From Myxococcota bacterium (lineage in GTDB: Bacteria > Myxococcota > UBA4151): a stretch of DNA of 64,000 nucleotides. The notes beneath the pieces are model-generated. The model saw nothing but the letters and a program-made list of their open reading frames with translations, did no database searches and was not told where the DNA came from. Numbering within the stretch: position 1 is the stretch's first letter; each line of letters begins with the position of its first letter. The translations under genes were made by a program, and so were the position numbers. Shown one piece after another: positions 1,833 through 14,062 of the stretch. The stretch lies in assembly GCA_036338695.1 (NCBI GenBank), contig JAYZBQ010000058.1, forward strand, positions 17,109 through 81,108. The letters are read 5' to 3'.

Positions 1833-3272
1833 CTAACGCACAAACACGAGCCCCCACGCCGTGGTGCGCTTGACGCCGTTGTCCGGCGCAAAGCCGATCG
1901 CCTCGTTACCCACCGACCGACCGGGGCCGCGCCCCAGATCGTTGGAGCCCGCCCCAAAGCCGATCCGTGAATCGGGCGTGACGCAGTCGTTCTCCTGGTT
2001 GGCGACGATCCCGATTCGGACGCGCATGAGCGGGTTGTAGACGTTGAAGCCCTCGCGGTTGCATCGCGCTTGCAAGGAGCCCCCTTTGACCAGGCGCTTC
2101 CAAGCCTCTCGACCGACCTTGGTCGGCTGGTACTTATTGCCCTTGAAGAGGTGGTAGAGCGACCGTGCGCTGTGGTCGATTTTGAGGTTGCGCCACAGCT
2201 TGCCTCCGTCCCAAGTGACCAGGTTGATGGCGTCAAACGGGATGCGGTAAAACCCTTTGGTTTTCGCTTCATAGGGCGTCTTTTTATCGAGCTTTGCATT
2301 GAGCGTCTGGCGGTTTGTCCAGAGCGGTGAGTCATAGGCAAAAGTCGGCTTACGGCCGTCGATCGAGAGCACGAGCGTCCAGCCGCCCCCATCATAAGTC
2401 ATATCGCAATAGGACGGATACGGCGCCTTACTGCGCTTGAGGAAGTACATGCCATCCTTTGCCTTCGGCCGGGCGCGCTTGATCGCTTTGCAGTGCTTTG
2501 CAGGGCGTTCAAAACTTCCCAGCGCCTTCTTGGCACGCTTCGCCGCCTCACGCTCCGCTTGCTCCTGAGCTAGCGCCTCCGCTTCGCGCTTTGCCGCCGC
2601 CCGGCGCGCAGCTTCGACCGCTTTGGCTTGCTCACTCGCTTGCGCCGCTCGGCGTTGCGCCTCGGCGATCCGGCGCTGATCGGCCGCACGCTGTGCCGCC
2701 TCAAGCTGCCGCCGCGCGTCGTCCGCCTCGCGCTTGGCTTGCTCCGCTGCTCGCTGGGCGGCTTGTACCGCTTTGGTGGCGTCCTGACGCAGCACCTGGA
2801 GCTCGAGCGCCGTGGGTGCTCGGCCGCCATCCTTGAGCAGCTCGCGGACCTTGGCGGGGAGCGAGTCAGCGAAGGCTTCGACCGTCTCGCTCTGGTCCGC
2901 CACGGTTGAGAGCGCGCGAACCTTCTCGATATCGACCAGCTTGAGCGTCAGAATGTATCGCTTGCCGAGCTGGTCGAGCCCGCCGGTGACCAGGTATTTG
3001 GCGCCCAAGGCGCCGCCAAGCTCGGCGATGCAGCTCGCCTCATCGCAGCCGCCTGACAACTGGCGCTTGATCTCCTCATCGATGGCGCCGAGGTCCTCGG
3101 GGGTGACCAGCGTGTATTGGCTCGACTGTCCCGCATAGATACGCACCAAGCGGGTCAGCGTTTGCGCGTCCTTGGAGGCGCCCTGGCTCGACCGCAGAGG
3201 CGCCACGATCAAGGTGGGAGGGAGGGGCATCGAGCTCACCATCAGCGCGGCCGTAAGGGTCAGACTTGACAT
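1833..3272 (-). CDS. Secreted protein: TolB-N/DUF2380-like domain, coiled coil, fibrinogen-like (YCDxxxxGGGW) C-terminal domain
   Basis: N-terminal signal-like segment; GCDEASCIAELGGALGA motif; Ala/Gln/Arg-rich coiled coil; PAKHCKAI...YCDMTYDGGGWTLV. Confidence 0.8.
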   Translation of the reverse strand: MSSLTLTAALMVSSMPLPPTLIVAPLRSSQGASKDAQTLTRLVRIYAGQSSQYTLVTPEDLGAIDEEIKRQLSGGCDEASCIAELGGALGAKYLVTGGLDQLGKRYILTLKLVDIEKVRALSTVADQSETVEAFADSLPAKVRELLKDGGRAPTALELQVLRQDATKAVQAAQRAAEQAKREADDARRQLEAAQRAADQRRIAEAQRRAAQASEQAKAVEAARRAAAKREAEALAQEQAEREAAKRAKKALGSFERPAKHCKAIKRARPKAKDGMYFLKRSKAPYPSYCDMTYDGGGWTLVLSIDGRKPTFAYDSPLWTNRQTLNAKLDKKTPYEAKTKGFYRIPFDAINLVTWDGGKLWRNLKIDHSARSLYHLFKGNKYQPTKVGREAWKRLVKGGSLQARCNREGFNVYNPLMRVRIGIVANQENDCVTPDSRIGFGAGSNDLGRGPGRSVGNEAIGFAPDNGVKRTTAWGLVFVR

Positions 3273-3430
3273 GGTGTGTTTGGCTCCAACTTGAGGGCGA
3301 CAGGACCAGCAAACGGTGACTGCGTCACCAAGTCAAGGACGCAGGATGCCGGCGCCTATTCACAGAAGGCGTCAGGCGTGATCCAAACAACACGGCGGGA
3401 TCAATGCGCCGTGCGATGGAGGCTCTCGGT

Positions 3431-3973
3431 ATGGCACAACCTGCGACCATCAGACGCTTTGAGATCGACGTCACGAATGTCGACGGCGGTGTGTATGAGT
3501 CCGTCTCGCTTCGGGTGGCGCAACACCCTTCCGAGAGTGAAGCGTACTGCGTGGTGCGCGTCATCGCCTATTGTCTGCATCTGGGCGACGGCGTTCGGAT
3601 GTCCAAATCCGGGCTGTGCGATGCTGACGAGCCGCCGCTGAGCTCCGAGTCGCTAACGGGCGAGCCGCGTCTGTGGGTTGATATCGGATCGCCCTCGGCT
3701 GATCGCCTTCATAAGGCCTCGAAGCGCTACGCTCGCGTGGTGGTGTACACCCACAAGCGCCCCGAGCTGCTGATCGACAAACTCAACAAACAGCGCATTC
3801 ACCGCGCTGACGAGCTCGAGCTCTACGCACTGGATAACGCCGCCATTGAACAACTAGCCGCTCGGCTGAGCCGGTCCAACAACTGGTCGTTCATACGCCA
3901 AGATGACGAGCTCTTCATCACGGCAGGCGAGTCCCCCGTGAGCTTTCCGCTCCGTGCCTTGCCTGCGCCGTGA
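3431..3973 (+). CDS. yaeQ: YaeQ family protein
   Basis: AQHPSES, GLCDADEP, LWVDIGSPSADRLHKAS and VVVYTH motifs typical of YaeQ. Confidence 0.9.
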   Translation: MAQPATIRRFEIDVTNVDGGVYESVSLRVAQHPSESEAYCVVRVIAYCLHLGDGVRMSKSGLCDADEPPLSSESLTGEPRLWVDIGSPSADRLHKASKRYARVVVYTHKRPELLIDKLNKQRIHRADELELYALDNAAIEQLAARLSRSNNWSFIRQDDELFITAGESPVSFPLRALPAP

Positions 3974-4055
3974 GCCTGAGGTGTCCTACACCCTTATAGC
4001 TAAAGAACAACGGCCTCGACTAGCGCATCCCGGCCGGGTTCGCTAAACCCCGCTC

Positions 4056-6365
4056 ATGAGATACCTAAACCTTCTTGTTCTGACGGTGCTGGCGGCCTGT
4101 GGTGCGCCGAGCCTCGAAGCCCACCAACTCAAAGTCACCATCGAAGACGAACGCCTGACGATCCGTGGCGTCGGCGAGCGCCTTTTGCTCGATCTTCCGA
4201 TCCGGGAGCTCGCGGCACGCAGCGGCTCGGCGAGTCACCAGATGAAGTTTGGCTCGTTCTTAGTCGAGGACCTGCCGCAACAAGCCTGGCAAGTCAGCGA
4301 GTCGATCGACGTCTCAAGCGATGACGAGACCTTGACCGCAAAGCTTGACGGTCTGGGGACGCTGACCGCTGAGATCGTCGCCGACGGACACGCTAAGGTG
4401 ACCTGGGCTGCCGAGCAAGGCAACCGCGCTCGGATGGTGATCGACTGTGCAGCCGACGAGCGCTTCATGGGCTTTGGTGCGCAGACCCATGACGTCGATC
4501 ATCGCGGTCAGCGGATCCCTTTGTGGGTGTCGGAGCAGGGGATCGGGAAGAATGACACGGATGAGGTGCCGCCGGTCTGGTTTTTGGTGGGGCGCCGCCA
4601 CTCAACCCATATCCCGGTCGCAGCGACCGTGACCTCGCGCGGGATTGCTTGGGCAGTCGAGACCGACGCCTACACCGAGGTAGATCTCTGCCTTGAGCGC
4701 GCCGACGCCACGGCGATTGAGCTGCACGAAGCGACCGTCCGACTGCACGTCTTTGATGGCCCGTCCCCGATGGAGGCGCTCAAGCGCTTCACGGGCTGGG
4801 TTGGGCGGCCCAAGCTGCCACCGGCGTGGGTTTTTGCGCCATGGAACGACGCCGTTTTCGGTGAAGAGAACGTGCAGCGCTTCGCTGAATTCTTACGCGA
4901 TGACTCGATCCCGACCTCAGCGATCTGGAGCGAGGACTGGAAGGGCGGGAACTGGCACGGCGACGCCTACCGGCTCGAGGAAGACTGGCGCCTTGACCGG
5001 GAGATCTACCCCGAGTTCGAGACCCTCACTCAGACGCTTCGCACCATGGGGATCCACCTGATGGTCTACTTCAACACCTTCGTCTTTGAGGCAGCCGAGA
5101 TCTTTAACGAGGCGCATGATCAAGGCTTCTTGGTCAAAGACAAGAGCGGGGAGTTCGTCCGTTTCCAGGGGCCTAACGCCAATTTTACGCACGCTGGGTT
5201 GATCGATCTGACCAATGAGGCTGCCGTAGAGTGGGTCGCCAATGAGCTCCGCCAGGCGCTCGACTACGGTGCTCGGGGATGGATGGCAGATTACGCGGAG
5301 TGGATGCCTGTGGATGACGTGGTCCTGGCGAGCGGGGAGGACCCCGCGCTGGTTCACAACCGCTACCCGATCATGTGGCAGCAGCTCAATGAGCGCGTGA
5401 TCGAGGAGGCAGGGCTCGCAGACGAAGCGATCGCCTTTTATCGCTCAGGCTGGATGGGCTCGCAGCCCTACGCTCGGGTGATCTGGGCCGGTGATCAAAA
5501 CACGGACTTTGACCCCAACGACGGCTTCCCGACCATCTTGCCCTTGGGTATCGGGCTGAGCGCAACCGGCTTCCCGTTCTACGGTCACGACATCGCCGGC
5601 TACCAGAGCAACACCACGGACCCGTCGACTAAAGAGCTGTTCCTGCGCTGGACCAGCCTCGGCGCCTTCTCTCCGGTGATGAGGACCCACCACGGAACAC
5701 ACGCCTCCGAGAATTGGAACCTTGAGCGCGATGAGGAGACGACGGCGCACTGGAAGCGCTACGCCCGGCTCCACATGCAGCTGTTTCCCTATCTCTGGGG
5801 TCTAGCGCAGCGCGCCGTGAACGAAGGTGAACCGATCTGGCGAGGCCTCGGTCTCGAGCACCCGGCCGAGCTTGAGCTCTGGTCCATCATGGATCAGGTC
5901 TACTTGGGTCCGGCGCTCATGGTTGCGCCCGTTCAGACTCAGGGCGCGACGGCGCGGCAGGTGGTGATCCCGAGCGGACGCTTCGCACCCTTCTTCGGCG
6001 GCGAGGCGGTGACTGGGCCAAAGACGGTTGAGGTGCAAGCGCCCGTGACCGAGATCCCGGTTTTCGTGCGCGCCGGCGGGTTGGTGCCCATGCTCGCTGA
6101 GCCGGTCGATACCTTAATGCCGGATGTTGAGGGGCTGCGCGACCTCGGCGACACAAACGGCGATCGTTTGCTTCATGTCGGGCTCGGGGCCGCCGGGCGC
6201 TTTTGTGAGGCGGATGGCGCCTGCTACGAGCTGACGGGAGAGGGCACCGCACAGCCTGCCAACGAGTTGGTTCTTCAAGGAAATACAGCGCATCAAGGTG
6301 ACGGCTGGCGGCTGGTGACCACCGGTCAGCCAAGCGGTCGCCAGACCCGAGTCATAGCCCACTAA
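4056..6365 (+). CDS. Glycoside hydrolase family 31 lipoprotein (sulfoquinovosidase YihQ-related)
   Basis: Lipobox LAAC; PLWVSEQGIGK; nucleophile motif GWMADYAE; acid/base WAGDQ; GHDIAGY; FSPVMRTHHG. Confidence 0.88.
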   Translation: MRYLNLLVLTVLAACGAPSLEAHQLKVTIEDERLTIRGVGERLLLDLPIRELAARSGSASHQMKFGSFLVEDLPQQAWQVSESIDVSSDDETLTAKLDGLGTLTAEIVADGHAKVTWAAEQGNRARMVIDCAADERFMGFGAQTHDVDHRGQRIPLWVSEQGIGKNDTDEVPPVWFLVGRRHSTHIPVAATVTSRGIAWAVETDAYTEVDLCLERADATAIELHEATVRLHVFDGPSPMEALKRFTGWVGRPKLPPAWVFAPWNDAVFGEENVQRFAEFLRDDSIPTSAIWSEDWKGGNWHGDAYRLEEDWRLDREIYPEFETLTQTLRTMGIHLMVYFNTFVFEAAEIFNEAHDQGFLVKDKSGEFVRFQGPNANFTHAGLIDLTNEAAVEWVANELRQALDYGARGWMADYAEWMPVDDVVLASGEDPALVHNRYPIMWQQLNERVIEEAGLADEAIAFYRSGWMGSQPYARVIWAGDQNTDFDPNDGFPTILPLGIGLSATGFPFYGHDIAGYQSNTTDPSTKELFLRWTSLGAFSPVMRTHHGTHASENWNLERDEETTAHWKRYARLHMQLFPYLWGLAQRAVNEGEPIWRGLGLEHPAELELWSIMDQVYLGPALMVAPVQTQGATARQVVIPSGRFAPFFGGEAVTGPKTVEVQAPVTEIPVFVRAGGLVPMLAEPVDTLMPDVEGLRDLGDTNGDRLLHVGLGAAGRFCEADGACYELTGEGTAQPANELVLQGNTAHQGDGWRLVTTGQPSGRQTRVIAH

Positions 6366-6400
6366 TGGCGGCTTAGGGCAGTTGACCGAGCCGCGGCGTC

Positions 6401-6429
6401 TTGCGCCGGGTGCGAAGTCCTTCTAAAGT
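6401..6429 (+). promoter_or_regulatory. Putative sigma70-type promoter for a leaderless transcript
   Basis: TTGCGC (6401-6406), 17-nt spacer, TAAAGT (6424-6429); predicted +1 falls at or next to the ATG at 6436. Confidence 0.6.
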
Positions 6430-6435
6430 GGAACC

Positions 6436-6522
6436 ATGATGAGCCTCAACGTGATCACCACCGACGTCTCTGGGAACGGCACCTGTTGTTGTTGCTGTTG
6501 TTGTACGTCGACCCCGTGGTGA
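6436..6522 (+). CDS. Polycysteine leader peptide (28 aa, MMSLNVITTDVSGNGTCCCCCCCTSTPW)
   Basis: Translated by hand: TGT TGT TGT TGC TGT TGT TGT at 6484-6504 in frame with ATG 6436/6439 and TGA 6520-6522; too short for the ORF track. Confidence 0.8.
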   Translation: MMSLNVITTDVSGNGTCCCCCCCTSTPW

Positions 6523-6633
6523 ACTGAGCGCCTTCCTTCCTACTCGCCAGTCTTCAGTCACCACGGAGGTCCTCTTCGGGTGCTGGAATGATCTGTCTCA
6601 TGCATCCGTCTCCTCCCTACTTATCGGATGCAT
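6510..6633 (+). promoter_or_regulatory. Putative attenuator with alternative RNA hairpins
   Basis: CCGTGGTG(A)ACTGA 6514-6527 pairs with TCAGTCACCACGG 6554-6566; ATGCATCCG 6600-6608 pairs with CGGATGCAT 6625-6633 just before ATG 6636; CGGGTGC 6577-6583 can alternatively pair with GCATCCG 6602-6608. Confidence 0.65.
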
Positions 6634-6635
6634 CC

Positions 6636-7595
6636 ATGACCCACTCACTACCCACTGTTCACATCCTCTATGAAAACGCTGCCTGGCTGCCGCCCTTGAC
6701 CGAGGCGCTCAAAGCTGAGGGCTTTCCCATCCGGCTGTGGCCAGTTGACGGCGGTTTGATCGATCCGTCCGAGGAGCCACCGGAGGGGTTGTGGATCAAT
6801 CGCATCAGCCCATCGTCGCACACGCGTGGGCACCACCACAGCGTCGGCCTGACGCGCGAGTGGCTCTCCTGGCTTCGAGTCCACCGGCGCCGGGTGATCA
6901 ACGGCCTCGAGGCGTTCGAACTCGAGATGAGCAAGCTTCGGCAGGACATGGCGCTGCGTCGCCACGGCATCTTGACCCCTAAGACCGTCCTCGCGGTGGG
7001 GCGTGACCAGATCCTCGACGCTGCGGCGCGCTTTGAAGGTCCCTTCATCACCAAGCACAACCAAGGCGGTAAGGGCTTGGGGATCCGGCAGTTCACCGAC
7101 GTCGCATCGCTTCGAGCCTATCTCGACTCGGATGCCTTTGATGAGGGCCCCGACGGCAAGCTGATCCTTCAAGAGTTTATCGAAGCCGCCGAGCCGGTGA
7201 TCACGCGGGTCGAGGTCGTGGGCGGTGAGATGATCTTCGCCATGAACAGCTCGACCGAAGAGGGTTTTGAGCTCTGCCCTAGCGACGCGTGCCAGGCGAC
7301 CCCGGCGTCGGTGTGCCCAGGTGAGGCGCCGAGCAGCAAGTTCAGCCCTGCCACGCTGAGCGCCGACGACCCGCTGGTGCAGAAGTATCTTCGATTCTGT
7401 GCCCTCGAGGGCGTTGAGGTCGCGGGTATCGAGTTCATCACCGACCGACACGGTCGCCGGTACACTTACGACGTCAACGGGACCACCAACTACAGCAGCG
7501 GCGTCGAGCGCGCCGTCGGCGTCGACGGCATGCGCGAGCTCGCCAAGTACATTCGGGGTATGGCGGGCTGCGCCAGCCTGGACCGGGTCGCCTAG
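6636..7595 (+). CDS. ATP-grasp ligase, RimK/glutathione-synthetase-like
   Basis: NRISPSSHTRGH, TKHNQGGKGLGI, LILQEFIE, AGIEFI and YDVNGTTNY motifs; ATG 6636 preferred over 6588. Confidence 0.85.
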   Translation: MTHSLPTVHILYENAAWLPPLTEALKAEGFPIRLWPVDGGLIDPSEEPPEGLWINRISPSSHTRGHHHSVGLTREWLSWLRVHRRRVINGLEAFELEMSKLRQDMALRRHGILTPKTVLAVGRDQILDAAARFEGPFITKHNQGGKGLGIRQFTDVASLRAYLDSDAFDEGPDGKLILQEFIEAAEPVITRVEVVGGEMIFAMNSSTEEGFELCPSDACQATPASVCPGEAPSSKFSPATLSADDPLVQKYLRFCALEGVEVAGIEFITDRHGRRYTYDVNGTTNYSSGVERAVGVDGMRELAKYIRGMAGCASLDRVA

Positions 7596-8014
7596 CCCAC
7601 GTTGTAGGAGCTGTGGTGCAGCGTAATGCGCACCTGCCCATCCACCTTCCGGTAGGCGAAGCTGTAGTCGGCGAAGACTTCCGTGCCATCAGGCTGGGTG
7701 AAGGTGTAGTGCCCCATGTCGTGCGCTGTCAGGCCGTCGCGAGCGATCACGGGTCCGCGGGCGCTGTCAAAATCGACGGCGACGAAGCCGTTGTGCAAGA
7801 AGCCTTTATCGCCCGGATAGTTGACGTCTCCGCCCACAAAGTACGACCGAGCGCCGGCTGCGTCGGTACGAATCGATGGCGACATCGTGGGCTTGAAGAC
7901 CAGCTCGGAGAAGTCATAGAGCGCAAGCAAGGCTTCAGGGTCTGCTGCGACGACGCCGGCGCCCCATTGGCTTTGCGCTTCGATGACTTCGTCGCGTGTG
8001 AGTGTATCGTTCAT
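7592..8014 (-). CDS. NTF2-like protein, probable iota-class carbonic anhydrase (COG4337-like)
   Basis: FKPT, IRT...SYFVGG, MGHYTF, YSFAY and C-terminal ITLHHSS motifs. Confidence 0.72.
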   Translation of the reverse strand: MNDTLTRDEVIEAQSQWGAGVVAADPEALLALYDFSELVFKPTMSPSIRTDAAGARSYFVGGDVNYPGDKGFLHNGFVAVDFDSARGPVIARDGLTAHDMGHYTFTQPDGTEVFADYSFAYRKVDGQVRITLHHSSYNVG

Positions 8015-9757: not shown

Positions 9758-12700
9758 ATGGAAGCTATTCGGTTAGGTGCGTTTGAGCTGCGGCGCCGGG
9801 TCGGATCAGGCGGTATGGGTGAAGTCTGGCTGGCAGAGCACGCCCTGAACGGCAAGCCCGTAGCGATCAAGACCATTCACCTGCGCCAGGACGATGACCA
9901 GCAGATGGGGCACCGCTTCGTCGCTGAGGTGCAGGCGGTGGCGCGTCTGTCGCACCCGAACATCGTCGGGATCCATGACTTCGGCGTGATCTCAGAGCGT
10001 GCCGCCGAGCACTCACTCGGCGTGCTGCAAGCGCATGCTCCGTGGTTCGCCATGGAGTTTTGCGCCGACGGGGACTTGATCTCGGAGCGACCGACCGACT
10101 GGCGAGGGATGCACCATGTGCTCTCGTCGATTCTGGAGGCGTTGGCGCTTACCCACGCCAACGGTGTGCTTCATCGCGACCTCAAGCCAGGGAACGTACT
10201 TATCGCTCGGCAGCCAGACGGAACCCTCTGCTACAAGCTCGCTGATTTTGGGCTCGCCTGGAGCCAAGACCGCTCGGCCGACCTAAACCGAAGCAGCCAG
10301 AGCGTGGGGACGCCGAACTATATGGCGCCCGAACAGGCGACCGGTCAGCTGCACGCCTTTGGACCGGCGACGGATCTCTATGCGCTGGGGTGCCTCGCCT
10401 GGAATTTGGCGTGCGGTAGCGCGCCCTTTACCTCCTTTGGCCAAGACGCCACGGCGCTCATGAATGCACAGGTGCACGCGCACCCGCCGCAGTTCCGACC
10501 CCGCTTTGCCTTACCTCGAGCGGTAGAGCACTGGATCCGCCGGCTGCTACGCAAAGACCCAAGCGACCGCTATGCCGTGGCTGCTGAGGCGCTCGCCGAG
10601 CTGCCCGGAGCAGGCGCTCACTGTGACTTGAACGCGCTCCCCGTCGAGGGTTCTGCCGAGAACGCTGCGCCGACCGTTGAGGTTCAGAGCGTCACGCCTC
10701 ATCACGAGCCGCCGGCGCCCCCGGCGCCGCGCACAGCGAGCCGCCTAAGCACCTTTCGCAGCGCGCCGGTGACCTGGCCAAGTTGGCAGCAAAATGAGCA
10801 AACGCTGCGACCTGAGCCCGGTGTTGGGATGGGACTCGTGGGCCTTCGATCGCTGCCGGTGGTCGGGTTGCAGGCACAGCGACAGCAGCTCTGGGATGCG
10901 CTCAAAGAGACGATCGCCGGTGGCCAGCAGCGCTTGATGTTCATCGAGGGCGCAGCGGGCAGCGGCAAATCCCGCCTGGCGATGTGGCTCACTCGAGCAG
11001 CCCATCAGCAAGGGCTCGCTCAATACGCCATGGCGAGCTTCCGTGGGGAGCTGGAGCAAGGCGCTAGCCTCGCCGCTGCGCTGGCGGCGCATATTGGCCT
11101 GGATCGCGGGATGACCGCTCAGGAGGCGCTGCTCGTGGTGGCCTCGCATCTGAGCCGGCATCGCTGTGACAGCGTGGCTGCGCGTAAGGCGTACCTCTCG
11201 GCTTTTGACAGCGTCTTGTCCCAACTCGAGATCGAAGAGTCGAGCTCCGATGAGCTGCGGCGAGAGACCCTCGGCGAGCTCGTCAAGCAGCTTGCGCGTG
11301 CCAAACCGCTGATCCTTGTGCTCGACGATCTCCTGCACGACCCAAGCGCCCTCGAGTTTGCGGAGTATGTGCTTGAGCAAGAGCGCTGTCCTTGCCTGAT
11401 CGTGGCGACCTATCGCCCCGATGACCTCGCTCGAAACGAACAGAACCAAGGACTCCACGGTGTCTTGATCGAGCGGGAGGCGTGCAGCCGCGTGACCACG
11501 CAGGCGCTCAACGCCCAGGAGTGCCAGGATTTTACCCGCTCGCTGCTGGGGTTATCCACCGACCTGACACAGCGAATCGCCAGCGGCTCGAAGGGGTCGC
11601 CCGAGACGGTGCGGCAGCTGTTGATGCAGCTGGTCGAAGAGGACTGCCTCGAGGTGAGCGAGGGAGGGCTCGACCTCAAAGCGGGGCATCAACTGCGCTT
11701 CCTCGACAGCCTCACTGCCGTGATCGCGGAGCGGACACGGCGCGCGCTCGACGCGCTGTCACCGGATGAGCGACGGTTTCTCATCTTGGGGACGCTGCTC
11801 GGCGAGCGCGTCGAGATCTCCCTGCAGCATCAGCTCTGCCGTCGGCTCGGTCAGCGCCACAGCCCTGGCTTGGTCGCAGACTTGGCGCGTGGCAGCATGC
11901 TGGCACTCCGGCGCGACAGCTGGGGATTTGTCGACGCTACCCAGCGCGAGATGTTGCTGGCTTATCCCGAGGCACAGCTCGACCGGGCTGCCTATATCGC
12001 CGCCGCTGAGGTCCTCGAAGGCAGCTCCCGGCATATGAGCCTCGTCTATCGCTGGGCTGCCGCGCACAACCGTTTGGCCGCCGGCGAAGCGCTCGGCAAA
12101 GAGCGCATGCTGGAGCTGATGACCGGGACCATTGCGAGCGGACGTTATCAAGCGGCGATGCGGATGGGGCAGGACTATCTCTCCCTTGTCGAAGCGCCGG
12201 AGCACCTTGAAGAGGCGACGCCGTGTTTCGAGGTGCGGATGGCTTACAATCTGTGCCTGTACCGACTCCACCGGATCGAGGAGGGGCTCGCGGATATCGA
12301 TGCGCTCAGCGCGCGCTGGCCCAACCTGCCGACGGCGTTGCGCCATCACGTCCTGACTCGGCGTGGGCTCTATCTCCACCCCAAGTTCCGACAGGTGATC
12401 TACGAGGAGATGTTGGAGGAGGGGGTCGCGCCCGAACTCGAGGTAGAGATCCGACCAGCGCTCGCCCGCCGCTGTGAGAGCAAAGGGCGCGTCAGCGAGG
12501 CGCTGGACCACTACGATCAAGCCTTGGCGGCCGCCGCAAAGCTGGGCGAGGACGCCGCTTTTCCCATTCTAGCGAAGCGATCGGCTTTGGCGATCGCAGC
12601 CGATCGCTCCCGGGAAGCCGAGCAGGACCTTCTCGTCTGTCAGCGGCAGCGAGACGCGGTCGAGGAGCGCGCTCGCTGGAGCTTGGAGCGGCGGTGGATC

Positions 12701-13177
12701 GAGTGGCTCGCCGCCAATGAACGCGACGCCGAGGCTTGGCAGCGCCTCGAGCAACAGGCGGACACCGAGCAACGCAGCGCGGGCGCTGTGCACCCCAACA
12801 CGCTCGAGTTGTATCTGCTGCTCGGCGCACTGGCCGGTCGTCTGGACGCCGTGCGCAAAGCGGCTGACGAGGGCCTTGCGCTGGGCTTGGAGCCGTTCGC
12901 CGAGATCTTCGAGGCGGCGCGCGTGATCGGCTATGGAGACGACGTACCGATCGAGGACCTCGAAGCGCTCGCCCATACTGTCAACGCGATCCCCGCGCGC
13001 TATCGCTTAGCCCAGGTGATCTATCTGATCGGGGTGGAATTGGCGCGCCGAGGGCAGCGAGATTTCGCCGCTGCCACGATCCGGCATGCCCAAGCGCGCC
13101 TGGCGATCTACAACAACCGAAGCTGGGTCAGCCGCTGTGATCATGCGCTCGCTGAGTTAAGCCCGTTAGACGTCTAA
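9758..13177 (+). CDS. Ser/Thr protein kinase fused to an AAA/STAND-type ATPase and a TPR-like helical region
   Basis: GSGGMGEV, VAIK, HRDLKPGN, DFG, GTPNYMAPEQ; Walker A GAAGSGKS, Walker B LVLDDL. Confidence 0.92.
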   Translation: MEAIRLGAFELRRRVGSGGMGEVWLAEHALNGKPVAIKTIHLRQDDDQQMGHRFVAEVQAVARLSHPNIVGIHDFGVISERAAEHSLGVLQAHAPWFAMEFCADGDLISERPTDWRGMHHVLSSILEALALTHANGVLHRDLKPGNVLIARQPDGTLCYKLADFGLAWSQDRSADLNRSSQSVGTPNYMAPEQATGQLHAFGPATDLYALGCLAWNLACGSAPFTSFGQDATALMNAQVHAHPPQFRPRFALPRAVEHWIRRLLRKDPSDRYAVAAEALAELPGAGAHCDLNALPVEGSAENAAPTVEVQSVTPHHEPPAPPAPRTASRLSTFRSAPVTWPSWQQNEQTLRPEPGVGMGLVGLRSLPVVGLQAQRQQLWDALKETIAGGQQRLMFIEGAAGSGKSRLAMWLTRAAHQQGLAQYAMASFRGELEQGASLAAALAAHIGLDRGMTAQEALLVVASHLSRHRCDSVAARKAYLSAFDSVLSQLEIEESSSDELRRETLGELVKQLARAKPLILVLDDLLHDPSALEFAEYVLEQERCPCLIVATYRPDDLARNEQNQGLHGVLIEREACSRVTTQALNAQECQDFTRSLLGLSTDLTQRIASGSKGSPETVRQLLMQLVEEDCLEVSEGGLDLKAGHQLRFLDSLTAVIAERTRRALDALSPDERRFLILGTLLGERVEISLQHQLCRRLGQRHSPGLVADLARGSMLALRRDSWGFVDATQREMLLAYPEAQLDRAAYIAAAEVLEGSSRHMSLVYRWAAAHNRLAAGEALGKERMLELMTGTIASGRYQAAMRMGQDYLSLVEAPEHLEEATPCFEVRMAYNLCLYRLHRIEEGLADIDALSARWPNLPTALRHHVLTRRGLYLHPKFRQVIYEEMLEEGVAPELEVEIRPALARRCESKGRVSEALDHYDQALAAAAKLGEDAAFPILAKRSALAIAADRSREAEQDLLVCQRQRDAVEERARWSLERRWIEWLAANERDAEAWQRLEQQADTEQRSAGAVHPNTLELYLLLGALAGRLDAVRKAADEGLALGLEPFAEIFEAARVIGYGDDVPIEDLEALAHTVNAIPARYRLAQVIYLIGVELARRGQRDFAAATIRHAQARLAIYNNRSWVSRCDHALAELSPLDV

Positions 13178-14062
13178 GGGGTCTGGAACGGCTTTCTTAC
13201 TGAGCGCTAAGCCGTCCAAATGCATCTCCATATCGATCCGATGCGGCTCTTCTCGGCTGTCGGGAGCGCGCAGGCTCCTCAGGGTGTCGAGGATCTCTTG
13301 CTCGGTGACCACAAAGGTCCCTGAGGCGCCGCGGATGCCATGGGCGTAAAACTCGCCGTCTCCCAGGTAGATGACGTTCTCACCGCCCCAGGCTGAATTC
13401 TTGGGATCAGCGCCGGGGTTTTTGTAATAATAATGGGAGCCCGGTTTGAGCTTGCTCGGCACGTGAGCGAGCCGCTTGACGTCGATGAAGTCGTCGTCCT
13501 CGACGCTCCAGCGGAAAAACTTGAGATGACGCGGCTCGGTAAAGAGCCGATCAAAGGCTTCGTCTCCGATATGGTCGAGGATCGCCTTGTGATAGATGAC
13601 CATCATCGCCGTGGCGCATTCAAAGCTGTACGCTGACCCATTCTCAAAGATGTCTCGCAAGGCGACGCTGGGCTTGCCGACTTCGCCGTCGCCGAGCCAT
13701 TTGCGGACCTGCATCTTGCCGCCATACCCCATCGTCCACAGGGTTTTGTTGACCTTGTCTTGCTTGGAGTTTGAGGCGAACGATGCCCCGCTCTTAGCCA
13801 AGTCTTTGCTCGCTTGAACCACCGCCGCCCGAAAGGCGAGGTCTTCGGTACGCTCAGCACCTAAGCGCTCAATCAGGGGGTTCGAGGGGCCGCCTGAGAC
13901 GAAGCGGTCCCCTGGGTCGATCTCTCCGGAGCGACCGCCCGGCTGGTCCTCGAGCTTGACCGGTGCGTCGTAGACCTCGGCAGCGAGCGCCTCGGCGCGC
14001 TCGAGGTCGCGCAGGGACGGCGGCTGCACGCGACCAAACAGGTGATTAAGCCAACTAGGCAT
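13166..14062 (-). CDS. tgl: Protein-glutamine gamma-glutamyltransferase (Bacillus Tgl-type transglutaminase)
   Basis: KPSVALRDIFENG, YSFECATAMMVIY, GDEAFDRLF, YYKNP and WGGENVIYLGDGEFYAHGI match Tgl motifs, including the catalytic Cys, Glu and His. Confidence 0.8.
   Translation of the reverse strand: MPSWLNHLFGRVQPPSLRDLERAEALAAEVYDAPVKLEDQPGGRSGEIDPGDRFVSGGPSNPLIERLGAERTEDLAFRAAVVQASKDLAKSGASFASNSKQDKVNKTLWTMGYGGKMQVRKWLGDGEVGKPSVALRDIFENGSAYSFECATAMMVIYHKAILDHIGDEAFDRLFTEPRHLKFFRWSVEDDDFIDVKRLAHVPSKLKPGSHYYYKNPGADPKNSAWGGENVIYLGDGEFYAHGIRGASGTFVVTEQEILDTLRSLRAPDSREEPHRIDMEMHLDGLALSKKAVPDPLDV

Follow-up and report, generated by a model that had tools for sequence, protein, structure and literature searches.

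In the classical amino-acid attenuators (trpL, hisL, leuL, thrL and pheL), a leader carries regulatory codons and the position of the ribosome picks either the antiterminator or the terminator. In Mycobacterium smegmatis, leaderless polycysteine short open reading frames (ORFs) act as Cys-responsive attenuators, in which the stalled ribosome frees a sequestered ribosome binding site (RBS) (Canestrari et al., 10.1101/834739). The mycobacterial set includes Ms5788A and six others as well as Rv2334A, and several Cys-metabolic operons form a 'ribulon'. For cys/cbs operons of Mycobacterium, P. acnes and B. longum, Cys-codon leaders had likewise been predicted, with Rho-dependent termination proposed for the terminator-less mycobacterial ones (Seliverstov et al., BMC Microbiol 2005, PMC1262725). 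In Rhodobacterales, the motif uORFC-8-2, a Cys-Cys upstream ORF (uORF) plus a terminator in front of cysS, is a candidate ribosome-mediated attenuator (Brewer et al., RNA Biol 2021, PMC8632094). Here we examined a polycysteine leader in a Myxococcota bacterium (assembly GCA_036338695.1, contig JAYZBQ010000058.1, positions 17,109 to 81,108). The 64,000 nucleotides (nt) of this stretch are called the window, and coordinates refer to it unless another locus is named. The leader lies upstream of a gene for a ligase of the ATP-grasp superfamily.

We read this leader as a conserved ribosome-mediated attenuator that would sense Cys-tRNA and control the ATP-grasp gene 6636-7595, and we give this reading a probability of about 0.7. 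It is drawn from the recurrence of the leader, the conservation of its Cys cluster, its TGT bias, the promoter geometry, the alternative helices downstream, a link to sulfur metabolism at one related locus (L033) and the mycobacterial precedent. The ligase loci compared carry L-numbers, L001 being the window, and G000 is the window's own genome. The features of the locus are the following:

6401-6406, + strand: -35-like hexamer TTGCGC, read from the sequence
6424-6429, + strand: -10-like hexamer TAAAGT, after a 17-nt spacer from the -35-like hexamer, followed by 6 nt and then the ATG
6436-6522, + strand: leader short ORF, ATG at 6436 and TGA at 6520-6522, 28 codons plus stop, encoding MMSLNVITTDVSGNGTCCCCCCCTSTPW
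6484-6504, + strand: run of seven Cys codons, the proposed sensor, codons 17-23 (TGT TGT TGT TGC TGT TGT TGT)
6510-6531, + strand: 5' strand of predicted helix P1 (anti-T), formed by the last four sense codons, the stop and 9 nt beyond
6550-6571, + strand: 3' strand of P1, overlapping the 5' arm of hairpin T
6553-6587, + strand: predicted terminator-like hairpin T, 14 base pairs (bp), 6553-6568 with 6574-6587, -17.3 kcal/mol, z -2.7
6600-6633, + strand: predicted hairpin H3, 9 bp, 6600-6608 with 6625-6633, -12.6 kcal/mol, z -6.3
6636-7595, + strand: ATP-grasp ligase of the RimK/LysX branch, 319 amino acids (aa), Pfam RimK 1.9e-08

A sequence-only reading of this DNA had already proposed a leaderless Cys-sensing attenuator here, and the elements that it described were found again. 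The ORF has its seven Cys codons, six TGT and one TGC, four codons before the stop. The TTGCGC-N17-TAAAGT geometry upstream of the ATG is as described, and no Shine-Dalgarno (SD)-like motif common to the leader ORFs of the compared loci was seen. The ligase start 113 nt past the leader stop is upheld by an N-terminus conserved across five orthologues. TGC does dominate elsewhere, with 1 TGT and 4 TGC in the ligase gene (6:1 in the leader versus 1:4) and 4913 TGT against 16114 TGC in the long ORFs of the genome.

Compared with the classical attenuators, the likeness is clear in L028, L029, L046 and L052. The window has the codon-run ORF and the mutually exclusive alternative helix, and lacks the intrinsic terminator, its terminator-like hairpin having no U tract; it also departs from the classical plan in sensing cysteine and in a start that would be leaderless rather than SD-led. 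As in the mycobacterial set (10.1101/834739), we find a short unannotated ORF at the presumed 5' end of a transcript, with Cys codons towards its C-terminus, at which stalling would relieve repression; each locus seems to have evolved separately and the residues other than Cys are poorly conserved. That set is defined by two or more Cys codons in succession close to the end of a short ORF, and the window has seven. Unlike it, the present loci belong to Myxococcota and Gemmatimonadota instead of Actinomycetota, and their predicted helices are of the anti-T/T or terminator/antiterminator type, not a translational RBS duplex; in place of a ribulon, one such locus was found in the window genome, with an ATP-grasp ligase as target. 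The leaders of PMC1262725 share the Cys runs near the stop of a short ORF and, as in the window, the lack of an obvious terminator, but are confined to Actinobacteria and to known cysteine-synthesis targets. With uORFC-8-2 the present leaders share a uORF carrying tandem Cys codons, an intrinsic terminator after it (here in the relatives) and an occurrence outside Actinobacteria. In that motif the Cys codons number two, are mostly UGC and lie inside the first stem, and the target is cysteinyl-tRNA synthetase; in the present leaders they number 3-7, are mostly UGU and precede the switch helices, and the target is an ATP-grasp ligase. The description of uORFC-8-2 contradicts the sequence-only reading, which knew of no such system outside Actinobacteria. 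What is new is the target enzyme and the phyla; the regulatory principle is already known, also outside Actinobacteria. Our search of the open-access full-text literature returned no paper tying a Cys leader to this ligase family or to Myxococcota or Gemmatimonadota.

The recurrence of the leader was established first within the family of the window organism. Ligase orthologues with 64-82% identity were present in four of the five other family genomes searched, the genome without a match being 59% complete. All five family orthologues thus found (in G000, G001, G002, G004 and G005) carry a short ORF with a Cys run in the same place, and the leader peptides of the four other than the window read MITTFTSPNTSSSCACCCCRLTSR, MIKPITSHALPNNCVCCCCATTGRCALI, MISTVNIQMTAGNCACCCCCSTAPQAS and MISAxYIQTTAGNCLCCCCSSASQAS. 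Wider sampling consisted of a one-genome-per-species scan (21 loci) and a metagenome scan (25 loci). Cys-rich short ORFs were observed upstream of the ligase in metagenome-assembled genomes (MAGs) of Myxococcota and of Gemmatimonadota/Longimicrobiales, as well as in many unassigned contigs, the phyla being those of the record titles; ...RGATCTCTCTRF... and ...GAACACSCSCTCAAR... are examples from Gemmatimonadota/Longimicrobiales.

For counting, a uniform criterion was applied to loci with at least 250 nt upstream: same strand, stop 40-200 nt before the ligase, at least three Cys in six residues, at most 60 codons, and a start codon at most 30 codons before the cluster. A Cys short ORF was recovered in 25 of the 42 distinct ligase loci (raw count 28/44). 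Removed from the raw count were the duplicate contigs L024 (= L004) and L025 (= L005) and a false match, L057, whose apparent leader was rejected as the Cys-rich C-terminus of a 463-aa upstream protein. Merging the close pairs L029/L031 and L061/L062 gives a stricter 23/40. The same criterion applied to the 2065 long ORFs of the window genome rich in G+C at third codon positions (GC3) gave 18 matches (0.9%). The scan of homologues for upstream in-frame Cys runs, which the sequence-only reading had put forward as a check, thus came out in its favour. Rfam on 6300-6700 at E <= 10 returned a chance match to a long non-coding RNA as its sole hit.

Conservation across loci is confined to the Cys cluster (of types such as CxCCCC and CxCxCxC) and to its position, 3-30 nt ahead of the stop codon; the N- and C-termini of the leader peptides vary freely. 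The choice of codons is also biased. Among the Cys codons of 24 short ORFs, 88 are TGT and 48 TGC (65% TGT); the adjacent ligase genes, with GC3 of 0.58-0.87, have 18 TGT and 81 TGC (18% TGT). The difference has a Fisher p of 7e-13, a value calculated on related sequences that are not independent. The window genome has a single tRNA-Cys among its 44 tRNAs, and since its anticodon is GCA, TGT is read by G:U wobble. Such a bias is expected if the codons, beyond the residues, are under selection in these leaders; slow decoding or the avoidance of (UGC)n hairpins could account for it.

Within its own genome (a 3.36-Mb assembly of 99 contigs, 93.6% complete) the run is alone: a search of both strands found no other run of at least six TGY codons, and the control pattern, the run read backwards, gave 12 matches. 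The Cys run of the leader is more than chance. Two TGT-rich short frames with 4-5 Cys, C47 and C26, lie inside coding regions of another frame or strand and were rejected as leaders. No Cys leader was found upstream of the genome's two CysK/CBS-like genes. These two, the best CysK/CysM-like genes of the genome (G000:C85:17038-17946 and G000:C65:8307-9158), score under the family cut-off, and the open frames that contain them measure about 470-490 aa, a length that would suit cystathionine beta-synthase-like proteins.

The promoter-like elements recur together with the leader. A TTGCxx-type hexamer, 17 nt, TAnnnT, exactly 6 nt and ATG are found in the window and in the four family orthologues, with variation in the letters of the hexamers. 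We then searched the 130 nt 5' of the Cys cluster for the pattern TTGNNN-N16-18-NANNNT-N5-9-(A/G)TG. It was found, in frame and with the frame open, in 17 of 23 distinct loci, and never (0 matches) at an out-of-frame ATG or GTG. In the window, where the leader ORF opens with ATG ATG, the position of the -10-like hexamer would put +1 at or beside the leader ATG, so that the mRNA would be leaderless or nearly so; the promoter geometry is what points to such a start. About 10 nt 5' of the -35-like hexamer, at 6378-6391, lies the sequence GGCAGTTGACCGAG, with counterparts GGCAGTTGCCCGAG in L004 and GGCAGTTGTCCnAG in L005, which might serve as an UP-like element or bind a protein.

Contigs of four RNA libraries were compared with 6200-7700. 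One of them, X4 (200 nt, no differences), corresponds to 6481-6680 and so has the Cys run and the spacer on one molecule with the initial 45 nt of the ligase ORF, for which DNA carry-over is possible. A second, X1 (2 differences), corresponds to 6466-6620. No contig of the four runs covered 6200-6465, and the contigs are uninformative on transcript starts, ends and strand.

Downstream of the Cys run, two alternative RNA structures are predicted. We folded 6506-6592 to represent the RNA accessible when a ribosome has stalled near the fourth Cys codon, and 6533-6592 for a ribosome at the stop. Helix P1 and hairpin T are mutually exclusive, as they use the common stretch 6553-6571, and folding gives P1 whenever the RNA from 6506 onward is free; the segment 6506-6575 folds at -29.0 kcal/mol (z -4.2 versus shuffles). 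Because P1 holds the stop and the four preceding codons, a terminating ribosome would forbid it and a ribosome at Cys codons 1-5 would permit it. In comparison with the 82%-identical L002, the pair U6517:A6563 is changed to A:U, which keeps the pairing in P1 and replaces Trp by Arg in the peptide; in T, A6563 is bulged. Among six sequences of the window's own clade, conservation within the spacer is highest in the 3' arm of T and the letters after it, YUCGGGYGCUGGA...UCUGUYCUC (L002-L005/L044). With a terminator script that asks for a hairpin at -10 kcal/mol or lower and then five or more U in eight, T passes in L002, L003 and L044 and fails in L001 and L004. The spacer 6523-6549, which forms the loop of P1, is G-poor and C/U-rich, like its counterparts in L002, L004 and L044, a composition that would suit Rho loading; Rho-dependent termination is thus one possibility for the window.

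The favoured sequence of events would be as follows. With plentiful Cys-tRNA, the ribosome would reach the stop and cover the 5' strand of P1, T would form and expression of the ligase would be cut short. With scarce Cys-tRNA, the ribosome would stall within codons 17-23; at the first four or five of these Cys codons it would leave the RNA from 6510 onward free, the more stable P1 would form, T would be blocked and the ligase would be expressed. In the window the output could consist of weak intrinsic termination or of Rho-dependent termination on the G-poor spacer, or be of another kind. The ligase would then belong to a response to cysteine or sulfur shortage.

The third structure, H3, has a CU-rich 16-nt loop (UCUCCUCCCUACUUAU), ends 2 nt 5' of the ligase ATG and buries the only SD-like letters there. 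A counterpart was found in L002/L043 only, L003, L004 and L044 having ordinary AGGA-type SDs instead.

The switch is easier to read in the relatives. A terminator-like hairpin with a U-rich tail follows the leader in 16 of 23 loci, and with such a counterpart of T the output would be intrinsic termination. Clean intrinsic terminators were seen at many loci, for example GAGCCGCCCGGGUCACCGCGAUCCGGGCGGCUCUUUUUU in L029, GACCGCCCGGUUCCCACCGGGCGGUUUUUUUU in L059 and CGCUGCCCCGG...CCGCGGCGGCGUUUUUUUU in L028. In L028, the end of the short ORF, CCGGGGCA, is complementary to the 5' arm of the terminator, UGCCCCGG, the duplex having -22 kcal/mol (z -4.0); the corresponding duplex of leader tail and terminator arm in L029 has -23.1 kcal/mol (z -2.7). 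Against 500 shuffles, complementarity of the leader tail also reached p <= 0.05 in L002, L044, L052 and L046, which makes 6 of 16 loci, and z was below 0 in 13/16. The xGxG peptide endings that recur among the leaders are encoded by CGGGGC..GGCUGA, and their recurrence is explained by this coding RNA being the antiterminator strand, which can pair with the terminator arm. Across six sequences from Gemmatimonadota, the proposed antiterminator is paired in 58 of 60 cells; sliding the partner by 1-3 columns lowers this to 27-57%. Two of the sequences show a CG-to-GC double change in the antiterminator, the only one there, and at that column the terminator is mismatched in four. In L033 and L056, judged by eye, the Cys codons nearly reach the stop codon, which is also where a hairpin starts, so that a ribosome stalled there would itself sit on the 5' arm of the hairpin. 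Together the relatives point to a terminator/antiterminator switch rather than to the RBS-sequestering duplex of Ms5788A.

The regulated gene encodes an ATP-grasp enzyme that lacks a specific name. Its start at 6636 follows from the N-terminus M-x-x-x-LPTVHILYEN, common to the five orthologues, and from an in-frame TAA just upstream in L002; the same two facts led us to reject the upstream in-frame ATG at 6588. The TIGR00768 model (rimK_fam) scores 63.8 bits, far under its cut-off of 143.4 bits, and NCBIfam LysX and other models also stay below their cut-offs. More than 5900 homologues at E <= 1e-3 bear generic names only (alpha-L-glutamate ligase, ATP-grasp domain-containing protein), and a further protein-cluster search gave generic ATP-grasp clusters only. 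A first structure model from 5 sequences was discarded, its mean predicted local distance difference test (pLDDT) score being 57.7; the model retained was made from 58 sequences and has a pLDDT of 89. Its best folds are ArgX, LysX and RimK (template modelling (TM) score 0.68-0.72, 15-21% identity, E ~1e-16), ahead of PsnB (TM 0.61-0.65), Ddl and DcsG, and a sequence-profile search agrees, with LysX/ArgX/RimK best at E ~3e-12. While LysX, ArgX and RimK (PDB 3vpb, 3vpd, 5k2m, 5zct) are thus its best structural and profile matches, the ligase differs from them by its low identity and by an extra, poorly modelled segment holding Cys214-Pro215 and Cys219, which are invariant across the 58 sequences. 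Cys227-Pro228, Cys255 and Cys312 are also invariant in the five own-family ligases. The insert Cys214-Pro228 is partly disordered in the model, with pLDDT <50 at 223-232. The conserved Cys residues could form a metal or redox site.

The ligase of the window is monocistronic, with a convergent gene after it, and the neighbours of the ligase are mostly unrelated between loci. The locus L033, from a MAG titled Deltaproteobacteria bacterium UBA6601, has a different arrangement: at 2246-5931 a Cys short ORF and the ligase are followed by genes for a CysM-like pyridoxal phosphate enzyme (TIGR01138, 3.5e-102) and for JAB/Mec-like, ThiS/CysO-like and ThiF/MoeZ-like proteins. These are the genes of the CysO-dependent cysteine pathway known from M. 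tuberculosis. In the L033 leader the Cys codons come within 9 nt of the stop codon, at which a long hairpin starts.

These data suggest a wider reading, which we hold tentatively, at a little under even odds: the ligase family would be a missing enzyme of the bacterial cysteine-shortage response, wired to Cys-tRNA charging in at least two phyla through leaders that are leaderless in their start and independently diversified, and in one lineage heading a CysM-Mec-CysO-MoeZ operon. Leader attenuators tell which amino acid the downstream gene serves, and here a cysteine gauge points to a generically named ligase. If true, the substrate of the ligase would add a new reaction to sulfur amino-acid metabolism. 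The reading offers a testable handle, since the substrate can be sought among cysteine and sulfur compounds and induction under cysteine limitation. It would also carry cysteine-codon attenuation, for which mycobacteria have so far given the sole demonstration, into further phyla, and it suggests that leaderless starts and terminator/antiterminator switches occur together. A partial parallel is LdmS, the L-aspartate-L-methionine ATP-grasp ligase of S. aureus, whose operon has CymR/CodY sites or an S-box riboswitch (Pederick et al., JBC 2022, PMC9486568). Both are ATP-grasp ligases of unclear physiological role under control by sulfur amino acids (proposed, in the present case); the types of regulator differ, and there is no detectable sequence relation. 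Searches of PDB sequences with the ligase and with the 58-sequence profile listed RimK, LysX/ArgX, Ddl and others, and no chain named LdmS.

Several observations weigh against the attenuator reading. A strict sigma-70 scan of 6200-7800 returned no promoter, and the two hexamers agree with the E. coli consensus at 7 of 12 positions, weak by that standard. The tail of hairpin T, AAUGAUCUGUCUC, has no U tract; a canonical terminator scan of 6200-7800 gave 0 sites, and the terminator script likewise none in L001. RNAalifold on six own-clade leaders produced no useful consensus, because the alignment keeps the helices out of register. H3 is predicted in both modelled ribosome states, being the same with the ribosome in the Cys run or at the stop; no ribosome-dependent RBS switch appeared in the window folds, and the model leaves the translation start of the ligase unexplained. 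As to the relatives, complementarity of tail and arm is not above shuffles in 10/16 loci, and z is positive in L059, L061 and L063. The covariation counts are small: the antiterminator score was reached by 185 of 500 shuffles, which is not significant because there is so little variation, and the terminator helix of the six Gemmatimonadota sequences contains no double change. No sulfur gene stands beside the ligase in 22 of the 23 loci, and induction by cysteine shortage is so far without known metabolic rationale. The short ORF is missing from 17/42 relatives, including L027 and L042 at 65% identity. Finally, the nearest folds, ArgX, LysX and RimK, act on small proteins or peptides, more exactly on the C-terminus of a small protein, a point in favour of one of the rivals below. 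The proposal of the sequence-only reading is therefore kept in part: recurrence, TGT bias, promoter geometry and alternative helices fit a Cys-sensing attenuator, and neither a canonical terminator nor a ribosome-dependent RBS switch was found in the window.

The other loci without the short ORF include more distant homologues, at 29-52% identity. Judged from L027 and L042, the Cys leader is lost, or was never gained, in some close lines. No Met- or Cys/Met-rich leader was seen in 20 loci without a Cys short ORF apart from the false match L057, and Rfam at gathering thresholds gave only a tRNA over 20 loci, each either distant or without the short ORF. In a sample of 301 Actinomycetota genomes, a ligase match at E <= 1e-25 was present in 4, and no Cys- or Met-rich leader was found at these four loci. 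Where L042 and L027 lack the Cys leader, they have short frames, MILITQSSCARRSWFSTLVAPT at L042:2385-2453 (one Cys) and MTIDLSSTS at L027:2409-2438, which may be decayed or replaced leaders.

Other explanations treat the leader as a peptide. In the first, the Cys-rich peptide and the ATP-grasp enzyme would be a carrier-peptide pair or one resembling the systems for ribosomally synthesised and post-translationally modified peptides (RiPPs), the peptide being a substrate or partner that is ligated or cross-linked. The short ORF does adjoin the ATP-grasp gene in 25/42 loci, and the graspetide ligase PsnB was also matched by the structure model; but the 17 relatives without the peptide, two of them at 65% identity, are difficult to accommodate. 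The leader peptide has no NCBIfam family at E <= 1, and the MvdC maturase model TIGR04185 matches the ligase at E = 0.09 with 11.9 bits versus a cut-off of 425 bits. No conserved leader or C-terminus was recognized, the last residues being W, R, I, S, H, C, G and others; neither a terminal Glu as in LysW or S6 nor a LysW-/S6-like acceptor is evident, and the window peptide offers a single acidic residue (D10) and no Lys or Glu for cross-links. The C-terminal residues follow the RNA helix, as the xGxG endings illustrate, the TGT bias is not predicted by a function of the peptide only, and no protease or exporter gene adjoins the leader in the window. We consider such a pair quite improbable. 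In the second, a free thiol-rich peptide co-expressed with the ligase would bind metal or serve in redox, the Cys run mattering as protein. The Cys cluster alone is conserved, as this would require, and the CxCxCxC patterns of the Gemmatimonadota copies resemble metal-binding motifs. The TGT bias, the fixed place of the cluster 3-30 nt before the stop with alternative helices and terminators next, the link of L033 to a cysteine-synthesis operon and the lack of a metal-related neighbour in the window make it very improbable. Both peptide functions had been named as alternatives in the sequence-only reading. The codon bias weakens both; the RNA-driven C-termini and the many close homologues without peptide also weaken the RiPP version, which the LysX/RimK-like fold keeps alive.

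A stalling sensor might also respond to another signal, for instance to tRNA-Cys being inactivated, to oxidative or thiol stress or to a general stress on translation, or might work with inverted logic, fast translation of the Cys run opening the ligase start region. Here H3 on the ligase start region, which stands outside the simple model, and a ligase without a known role in cysteine synthesis would find a place. In M. tuberculosis, ribosomes stall at Cys codons once a toxin cleaves tRNA-Cys (PMC13096801), a precedent for such signals. Against these variants, the leader and ligase of L033 head cysteine-synthesis genes, where induction on shortage is the ordinary logic, and the geometry of the clean-terminator relatives gives the ON state when Cys-tRNA is scarce. 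We regard them as improbable, and the Cys-tRNA-sensing attenuator as the preferred reading.

Some neighbouring genes were recorded in passing. The convergent ORF after the window ligase, 7592-8014 on the - strand (140 aa), has a weak match to NF047901, metal-independent carbonic anhydrase (68 versus a 350-bit cut-off), and no Pfam family. After the distant ligase homologue L036:3590-4636, which has 43% identity and lacks a Cys leader, comes a gene of the same strand for a luciferase-like flavin monooxygenase (PF00296, 2.7e-67). Farther along the window, 9758-13177 encodes a 1139-aa protein with an N-terminal Ser/Thr kinase domain and an AAA_16/NB-ARC (STAND-type) nucleoside triphosphatase, and the ORF 13166-14062 on the - strand matches the Tgl-type protein-glutamine gamma-glutamyltransferase family (PF20085, 2e-46), uncommon in a Myxococcota MAG.

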